Notes: generated from the letters alone by a model not told the origin. A stretch of 64,000 bases of DNA from Escherichia coli (GCF_003334815.1 NZ_QOWO01000001.1), one strand, 5' to 3'; shown: positions 47,366 through 47,678, numbered from the stretch's first letter. Made by a program: numbers and translations.

Positions 47366-47678
47366 ATGACACCTAATGTCACCATGACGGCGTTATGTTG
47401 GAAAGGTGTCATTAGGTGTCATAGCGGGAAACACGCTGATTATTAAAGAAAAATACAAACAAGATAATGTAATGAATGACACCTGTGACACCATGACACC
47501 CATTTCTATAAAGTATAACGACCACTGTTACATTATCACAGTGGTCGTTATTTTCTTTAAAAATGCTGTCATAGGTGTCATAGGTGTCATTAGTAATGTC
47601 GCAACCCTTGCGGGTTATGGCTTGAGAACAATGACACCTGCCATGACACCTTATAAATTAATGACACCTAGGCGTCAC
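47366..47678. repeat. iteron array: at least 11 copies of the 8-mer ATGACACC/GGTGTCAT in both orientations; putative replication origin
   Basis: forward copies at 47366, 47476, 47485, 47493, 47631, 47643, 47661; reverse copies at 47405, 47415, 47574, 47583; plus degenerate variants and a 12-bp perfect palindrome at 47516..47550. Confidence 0.7.

Follow-up and report, generated by a model that had tools for sequence, protein, structure and literature searches.

A window of 64,000 nucleotides of Escherichia coli DNA (GCF_003334815.1, NZ_QOWO01000001.1) carries a 9.3-kb island (42482–51827) between fis and yhdJ. It has inserted into the 3′ end of fis, whose last codons it restores, and a 17-bp direct repeat, the longest exact match between its two ends, marks its limits. 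Every island gene lies on the minus strand, in the order int, alpA-like, orf93, rep, orf74, terminator, an array of short repeats (iterons), and the late operon (Table 1). The terminal integrase, the attachment site, the alpA regulator, and the unidirectional transcription are those of Gram-negative phage-inducible chromosomal islands (PICIs), and the island is slightly small for this class (9.3 kb versus about 10–15 kb). The subject of this analysis is the iteron array, which a preliminary description of the window had put forward as a putative origin of replication.

The octamer ATGACACC occurs 14 times on the two strands of the window, versus 1.85 ± 1.40 times (maximum 6) in dinucleotide-preserving shuffles, which bears out the earlier statement that its frequency is beyond chance. 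Ten of the 14 exact ATGACACC/GGTGTCAT copies fall within 303 bp (47366–47668) and four in the remaining 63.7 kb; the density of exact copies outside the array is 0.02 per 340 bp. None of the other 400-bp stretches of the window holds more than four copies of any 8-mer, making the array its sole cluster of this kind. Three additional copies have one mismatch and stand in register with the exact ones, and the array thus comprises 13 copies in both orientations. The preliminary description had counted at least 11 exact copies, one more than there are, and had placed its limits at 47366 and 47678, the first of which is the start of an exact copy and the second the end of a copy with two mismatches. 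The iteron consensus has 9 bp, AGGTGTCAT, in its extended form AGGTGTCAT(T/A), and neighbouring copies are 8–12 bp apart.

The copies are arranged in four clusters, A to D. The copies of cluster A together make a 21-nt inverted repeat, and the three plus-strand copies of cluster B oppose the three minus-strand copies of cluster C across a central palindrome. Both this palindrome and the spacer between clusters A and B are AT-rich compared with the island average of 50% AT. As single-stranded DNA, the palindrome has a folding energy of −17.4 kcal/mol (z −7.9); a structured RNA was considered and rejected, with Rfam yielding just sub-threshold matches to plant microRNAs that reflect the palindrome. 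Between 47300 and 47720 we found no DnaA-box-like sites, no sites resembling those of integration host factor (IHF), and no GATC clusters. Origins in PICIs and Staphylococcus aureus pathogenicity islands (SaPIs) have opposed iteron sets on either side of an AT-rich centre, directly 3′ of rep (PMC6092414, PMC9371898), and short iteron sets flanking an AT-rich region, with opposed copies on its two sides, are what we found here.

Table 1. Features of the island and its iteron array, with positions counted from the first letter of the window.
Feature	Position	Strand	Details
Left attachment-site repeat	42465–42481		17-bp direct repeat AATACGGCATGAACTAA; last codons and stop of fis
Tail tape-measure protein	42559–44832	−	757 aa; end of late block
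orf295	46087–46974	−	295 aa; first late gene
Leader, origin to late operon	47190–47350	−	Non-coding; outside the iteron array
Cluster A	47366–47422	+ and −	Farthest from rep; plus copies 47366, 47376 (one mismatch), minus copies 47405, 47415
Spacer between A and B	47423–47475		70% AT
Cluster B	47476–47500	+	47476, 47485 (one mismatch), 47493; inverted relative to cluster C
Central palindrome between B and C	47501–47564		64 bp, 72% AT; 14-bp perfect stem (AACGACCACTGT...)
Cluster C	47565–47590	−	47565 (one mismatch), 47574, 47583; 9-bp spacing
Spacer between C and D	47591–47630		Short G+C hairpin AACCCTTGCGGGTT; varies among relatives
Cluster D	47631–47668 (to 47678 with the two-mismatch inverted copy)	+	Nearest rep; exact copies 47631, 47643, 47661
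Exact copies, plus strand	47366, 47476, 47493, 47631, 47643, 47661	+
Exact copies, minus strand	47405, 47415, 47574, 47583	−
One-mismatch copies	47376, 47485, 47565	+, +, −	ATGTCACC, GTGACACC, ATGACAGC, respectively
Two-mismatch inverted copy	47671–47678	−	GTGACGCC
Intrinsic terminator of the int-rep-orf74 transcription unit	47713–47696	−	7-bp stem with 6 G-C pairs, then CTTTTTTTAT
orf74	47738–47962	−	Small conserved open reading frame, 74 codons; between rep and array
rep	47972–49660 (stop codon 47972–47974)	−	562 aa
orf93	49644–49925	−	17-nt overlap with rep start; conserved in L002, L020, L021, L022
AlpA-like helix-turn-helix regulator/excisionase	49934–50113	−	59 aa; weak TIGR01764 match
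Tyrosine integrase	50408–51715 (limits of the reading frame; true start probably internal)	−	PHROG phrog_1 integrase, E 5e-53
Right attachment-site repeat	51811–51827		17-bp direct repeat AATACGGCATGAACTAA

The array was earlier placed directly downstream of a primase/helicase-like gene. It does lie 3′ of rep, but about 300 bp away, with orf74 and the terminator in between. Rep comprises a Toprim-like N-terminal module (residues 1–116), an ATPase of superfamily 3 (SF3) and VapE/D5 type (about 250–470; Pfam PF05272, VapE-like, at 252–470), and a predicted winged-helix C-terminal domain (about 475–542), for which the predicted topology of residues 475–542 is H-E-H-H-E-E, a winged-helix pattern. 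The sole sequence match in the PDB is 7PDS, deposited as "Similar to D. nodosus vapE" and "The structure of PriRep1 with dsDNA", which is the SaPI Rep of a study (PMC9371898) in which SaPI Reps recognise their iterons via the C-terminal winged-helix domain. The same entry is the best Foldseek match of the AlphaFold model (mean predicted local distance difference test score 79; about 460 columns, E 2e-17), followed by NrS-1 helicase, poxvirus D5/E5, SaPI5 PriRep, and papillomavirus E1. The N-terminal 116 aa are Toprim-like by fold comparison only, and their sequence profile gave nothing significant against the PDB; phage relatives of Rep (65% identical over residues 159–556) have full Toprim/PriCT domains instead. 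We found no conserved DxD motif in the alignment of Rep and no Pfam primase domain, and because the Toprim-like fold is all that remains, the label "primase" is unsupported. The helicase part of the earlier label (SF3, VapE) holds, and Rep is a helicase-initiator of SF3 type.

We compared the window with 17 related islands (L002, L004–L013, L015, L019–L022, and EcCICFT073), which comprise ten loci found by scanning a single genome of each species with two Rep alleles, four from exact-protein look-ups, two E. coli sister islands, and EcCICFT073. A clear iteron array begins 14–300 bp past the rep stop in 16 of them; the exception is L010, with four weak matches that are no denser than in the rest of that locus. 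The iterons are TGGTGGCGAGT in L002, GGTGAACAC in L004, L005, L006, and L012, GGTAGACAC in L008 and EcCICFT073, GGTGTTCAT in L011, AGTGGGTTA in L009, AGGTGGAACA in L013, CAGGGTCCA in L021, and AGGTGTCA(T/C) in L015, L019, L020, and L022. The corresponding Rep proteins share a common N-terminal module (46–95% identity) and have at least four unrelated types of helicase plus C-terminal domain. In L019, L020, and L022, the C-terminal domain is 90–98% identical to that of the window Rep and AGGTGTCA stands at the same positions, while int, alpA, orf93, and orf295 are just 57–91% identical or absent. Conversely, L002 has a 99% identical orf93 and a 94% identical orf295, but its C-terminal domain is unalignable and its iteron different. 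The rep DNA of L006 and L008 is 90–98% identical up to nucleotide 1490, with divergence confined to the C-terminal domain and the origin, and their iterons differ at two positions. Across these islands, the iteron tracks the C-terminal domain of Rep rather than int, alpA, or the late genes. Together with the predicted winged helix and the fold match to SaPI Rep, this covariation, including the natural chimera formed by L006 and L008, indirectly supports the idea that Rep may recognise the iterons through that domain.

The same comparison bears on the idea that the repeats are bound by a different product of the island (the AlpA-like regulator, orf93, orf74, or a small terminase) and act as an operator for the late genes or in packaging. 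They sit between the early-unit terminator and the late operon, and orf74 is linked to the same cassette, being present in L015–L020 and L022 and absent from L002 and L021. The sister island L002 encodes a small terminase, of which the window has none. However, the iteron sequence does not track the identity of alpA, orf93, orf295, and orf106; L020 keeps the iterons although its orf74 is only 42% identical; and the change of iteron between L006 and L008 accompanies a change confined to the Rep C-terminal domain. Members with a Rep of P4 alpha type use the repeat that is annotated as ori type-1 in the P4 record. P4 alpha has been shown experimentally to bind this type-1 repeat, TGTTCACC. We therefore give an operator or packaging site a very small chance, although Rep bound at an origin could in addition affect read-through into the late operon.

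Iteron cores are better conserved than the spacers between them. Within 47366–47668 we compared 104 core with 199 spacer positions and found 0 core versus 10 spacer differences in L015 (Fisher p = 0.014), 7 versus 34 in L020 (p = 0.008), and 23 versus 91 in L019 from Pantoea (p = 3e-5). Cluster C is identical in all relatives including L019, and the cluster D copies are unchanged in L015, L020, and L022 and nearly so in L019, where the spacers around both clusters have been rewritten. The central palindrome is kept in L020.

The alignments also speak to a coding function. An open reading frame of 109 codons (47406–47735, plus strand) runs through the array, so that the repeats could be repeated codons, and several RefSeq genomes annotated with PGAP list it as a "hypothetical protein" (WP_000052065.1, WP_112793409.1). 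Yet the frame is broken by stops or frameshifts in L015, L016, L019, L020, and L022 with the iterons intact, it is unannotated in other genomes and matches no family, it is antisense to every island gene and runs through the terminator, and sister islands have different repeats at this place without such a frame. The chance that the region codes for a protein is negligible, and the frame is probably a spurious gene call.

The repeats might, alternatively, be Rep-binding sites that stimulate replication in cis while initiation takes place elsewhere in the island, as with the crr (cis replication region) of satellite phage P4. The position of the array corresponds to that of crr: in P4, the array that follows alpha and the alpha terminator is crr (4291–4590), and the origin proper is at 9086–9809. 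The island, however, has no second cluster, and the lone stray TGACACC outside the array is inside rep at 48416. In the homologous arrangement of EcCICFT073, a single intergenic array behaves as the origin (PMC6092414), and BLASTP detects no similarity between the window Rep and P4 alpha (E 0.28). We consider a crr-like role to have a small chance. The preliminary description had compared the locus with both P4 and PICIs; since the island has a single array, and the P4 array in this position is crr with ori about 4.5 kb away, PICIs are the correct parallel.

Two other types of origin were considered and rejected. An iteron plasmid origin of the RepA, pi, or TrfA type has direct iterons of 17–22 bp to which a RepA-like winged-helix initiator binds, DnaA boxes, and host-loaded DnaB, whereas the iterons here have 8–9 bp and both orientations, 47300–47720 contains no DnaA-box-like site, and the initiator is an SF3 helicase. 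A P4-like satellite was dismissed because Rep shows no similarity to alpha, the single array consists of a different octamer, and there are no matches to sid, psu, or delta.

Taken together, the position 3′ of rep, the inverted iterons around an AT-rich palindrome, the covariation with the Rep C-terminal domain, and the conservation of the iteron cores argue for the origin proposed in the preliminary description. The series also contains experimental anchors, the tested EcCICFT073 pri-rep-ori and P4 alpha with its TGTTCACC repeats. We consider it very likely that the array serves as origin of replication for a phage satellite of PICI type that has integrated into the fis 3′ end. Several points weigh against this interpretation. 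Unlike in most relatives, the 74 codons of orf74 and a terminator separate rep from the array, and Rep has no recognisable primase domain, so that a priming partner must be assumed. The conservation tests treat alignment columns as independent, and the number of independent lineages behind the covariation is modest. In L019 from Pantoea, the central palindrome is weak; the hairpin as such may therefore not be required, and the constrained feature may be AT-richness rather than the hairpin. In addition, a deletion remnant (described below) has the array without rep or int, and the sequence can thus persist as a relic, an orphan origin.

If the array is the origin, replication would begin with the switching on of the early operon and the production of Rep; in characterised E. 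coli PICIs, a helper phage triggers this step via AlpA, and the island presumably depends on a helper phage. Rep would act as a hexameric SF3 helicase that doubles as initiator, its C-terminal winged helix presumably reading the 9-bp iteron AGGTGTCAT. The inverted clusters B and C would place Rep on both sides of the central palindrome, the putative melting site, and the outer clusters A and D would contribute cooperative binding. Rep would then load itself and unwind the DNA, and the host replisome would copy the excised circle. Because Rep lacks a recognisable active primase, priming would presumably be by the host or the helper.

Homologues of the integrase are annotated as tyrosine recombinases and have PF00589, and homologues of the AlpA-like protein (66–100% identical) have PF05930 (Phage_AlpA). 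Orf74 remains an intact frame in L015–L020 and L022 and in relatives from Klebsiella, Enterobacter, and Pantoea, although the L020 version is only 42% identical. A hot spot of accessory or immunity functions has been described beside pri in PICIs (PMC11364771). Orf74, orf93, orf106, and orf149 have no match in PHROGs, NCBIfam, or PADLOC. Orf295 is conserved in all related islands (58–94% identity), with no match in Pfam, PHROGs, NCBIfam, or PADLOC and none by tblastn in 50,697 phage records. The leader between the array and the late operon is conserved in islands with differing iterons and Rep types (L002, L019–L022). Its conserved blocks are GGTACTTCCG..GGGGTAC.GCCTGCGGGGGCAT and CGCGTTGTGCGTG...TTTATGATTAC...TAAATCAAT....TTATG, it includes an IHF-like AATCAATCATTTA, and it may serve as promoter of the late genes or in packaging. 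The full-length tape-measure gene at the end of the late block is unusual for a PICI-like island. L015 has another integrase gene on the left side of its tape-measure gene, a sign of possible tandem elements.

The array is present in 48 of 5,426 complete E. coli genomes (about 0.9%), in every case as a single chromosomal copy, and 47 of these 48 genomes also carry a complete rep that is at least 99% identical. Rep also occurs in Klebsiella, Enterobacter, Citrobacter, and Pantoea. In other E. coli genomes, the site between fis and yhdJ is also occupied by allelic islands. In one sister island at this site (L003; NZ_CP141749.1, 8248–8945), rep is interrupted by IS1A and the N-terminal stub is annotated as "DNA primase family protein". 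In strain EC2641, the fis–yhdJ interval contains a deletion remnant (L001; NZ_JALDNN010000001.1, 5999–7524), which retains the equivalents of 42482–43259 and 46997–47823, with the whole array at 99% identity, and has lost rep, int, and most late genes.

The tape-measure protein (58–60% identity) and residues 159–556 of Rep (about 65%) share their best phage matches, Jilinvirus myophages such as vB_EcoM-ep3, ECOO78, ECO1230-10, PT1, and Bas97. This similarity hints at Jilinvirus phages as candidate helpers or donors. A copied helper-phage origin was considered and rejected: vB_EcoM-ep3, which has the nearest phage relative of Rep, contains no cluster of the iteron or of another 7–9-mer beside its primase gene or elsewhere in its 42 kb. 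As a tentative and rather doubtful extension, the rep-ori cassette and the tape-measure gene may both derive from Jilinvirus-type myophages, and the island may represent an undescribed satellite lineage that parasitises them, its own origin being fired by a helicase-only initiator with an inactive Toprim stub. That stub is common to all enterobacterial Pri-Rep alleles including EcCICFT073, so "Pri-Rep" proteins would then not prime. The origin would be the satellite's own invention and not a copy from the helper, because the related phage is without any iteron cluster.

With this assignment, the 9.3-kb island at fis becomes a probable phage satellite capable of autonomous replication. The related islands form a natural specificity series for self-loading SF3 initiators, with nine different iterons that each have their own Rep C-terminal domain. 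L006 and L008, which differ only in this domain and the origin, are direct material for swap experiments on origin recognition by such helicases. For this island family, the comparison also yields a rule for locating origins, namely the first repeat cluster after rep, and it corrects the probably spurious "hypothetical protein" annotated over the array in RefSeq.

We found no relevant literature for the octamer together with the term "iteron", and no description of this iteron or Rep allele turned up in the literature that could be searched; the kind of origin is already known from SaPIs, EcCICFT073, and P4. The supplements of PMC6092414 make no mention of fis, yhdJ, or VapE, although the island may still be one of the E. 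coli PICIs in its list. Among the closest characterised systems is the one described in that study (Fillol-Salom et al. 2018), in which rep and ori of EcCICFT073 maintained a temperature-sensitive plasmid and deletion of either part abolished or reduced maintenance. EcCICFT073 and the window island share the gene order (int, alpA, ..., rep, ori, late genes), transcription in one direction, a Pri-Rep N-terminal module (47% identical over about 115 aa), and, directly behind rep, short intergenic iterons that point both ways around an AT-rich stretch. They differ in the remainder of Rep: past residue about 117 the two proteins cannot be aligned, the helicase and C-terminal domain being P4-alpha-like in EcCICFT073 and VapE-like here. 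They also differ in the iteron, GGTAGA(C/T)A (11 copies) there versus AGGTGTCAT here. EcCICFT073 has no open reading frame between rep and ori, is integrated next to roxA/phoQ instead of at the fis 3′ end, and has capsid and decoration late genes where the window island has a tape-measure protein.

SaPI origins (SaPI1, SaPIbov1, and SaPI5; Ubeda 2007/2012, as cited in PMC9371898) lie immediately 3′ of rep and consist of 6–12 iterons with an AT-rich centre and at least two opposed iterons per side. The array of the window likewise lies 3′ of rep and has an AT-rich centre and opposed iterons, and the SaPI Rep (PDB 7PDS, 7OLA) is a self-loading SF3 helicase-initiator that reads the iterons with a C-terminal winged helix, a topology also predicted for Rep here. 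However, the Rep proteins are only about 18–20% identical, and SaPI iterons have 5–6 bp, whereas those here have 8–9 bp and number 13 in four clusters. The window island, moreover, has a Gram-negative host, unidirectional transcription, and no separate pri gene, and the Toprim-like stub at the N-terminus of its Rep is confined to the enterobacterial Pri-Rep series.

P4 resembles the island in having octamer iterons in both orientations just past the terminator of its helicase-initiator gene. In contrast to the one array here, P4 needs two, ori and crr, which are about 4.5 kb apart. Its alpha protein is annotated as a DNA primase, and nothing in the island Reps corresponds to the first 289 residues of alpha; residues 290–772 are 48% identical to L004-type Reps, whose iteron is the P4 type-1 repeat TGTTCACC. 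Homologues of sid, psu, and delta were not found in the island. In a wider context, SV40 large T antigen and papillomavirus E1 act at origins where inverted short repeats, bound by the helicase's own DNA-binding domain, flank an AT-rich or palindromic melting region on which two hexamers assemble. Their origin-binding domain is N-terminal of the helicase, whereas Rep has a C-terminal winged helix, and the relation is one of mechanistic analogy, not of family membership.
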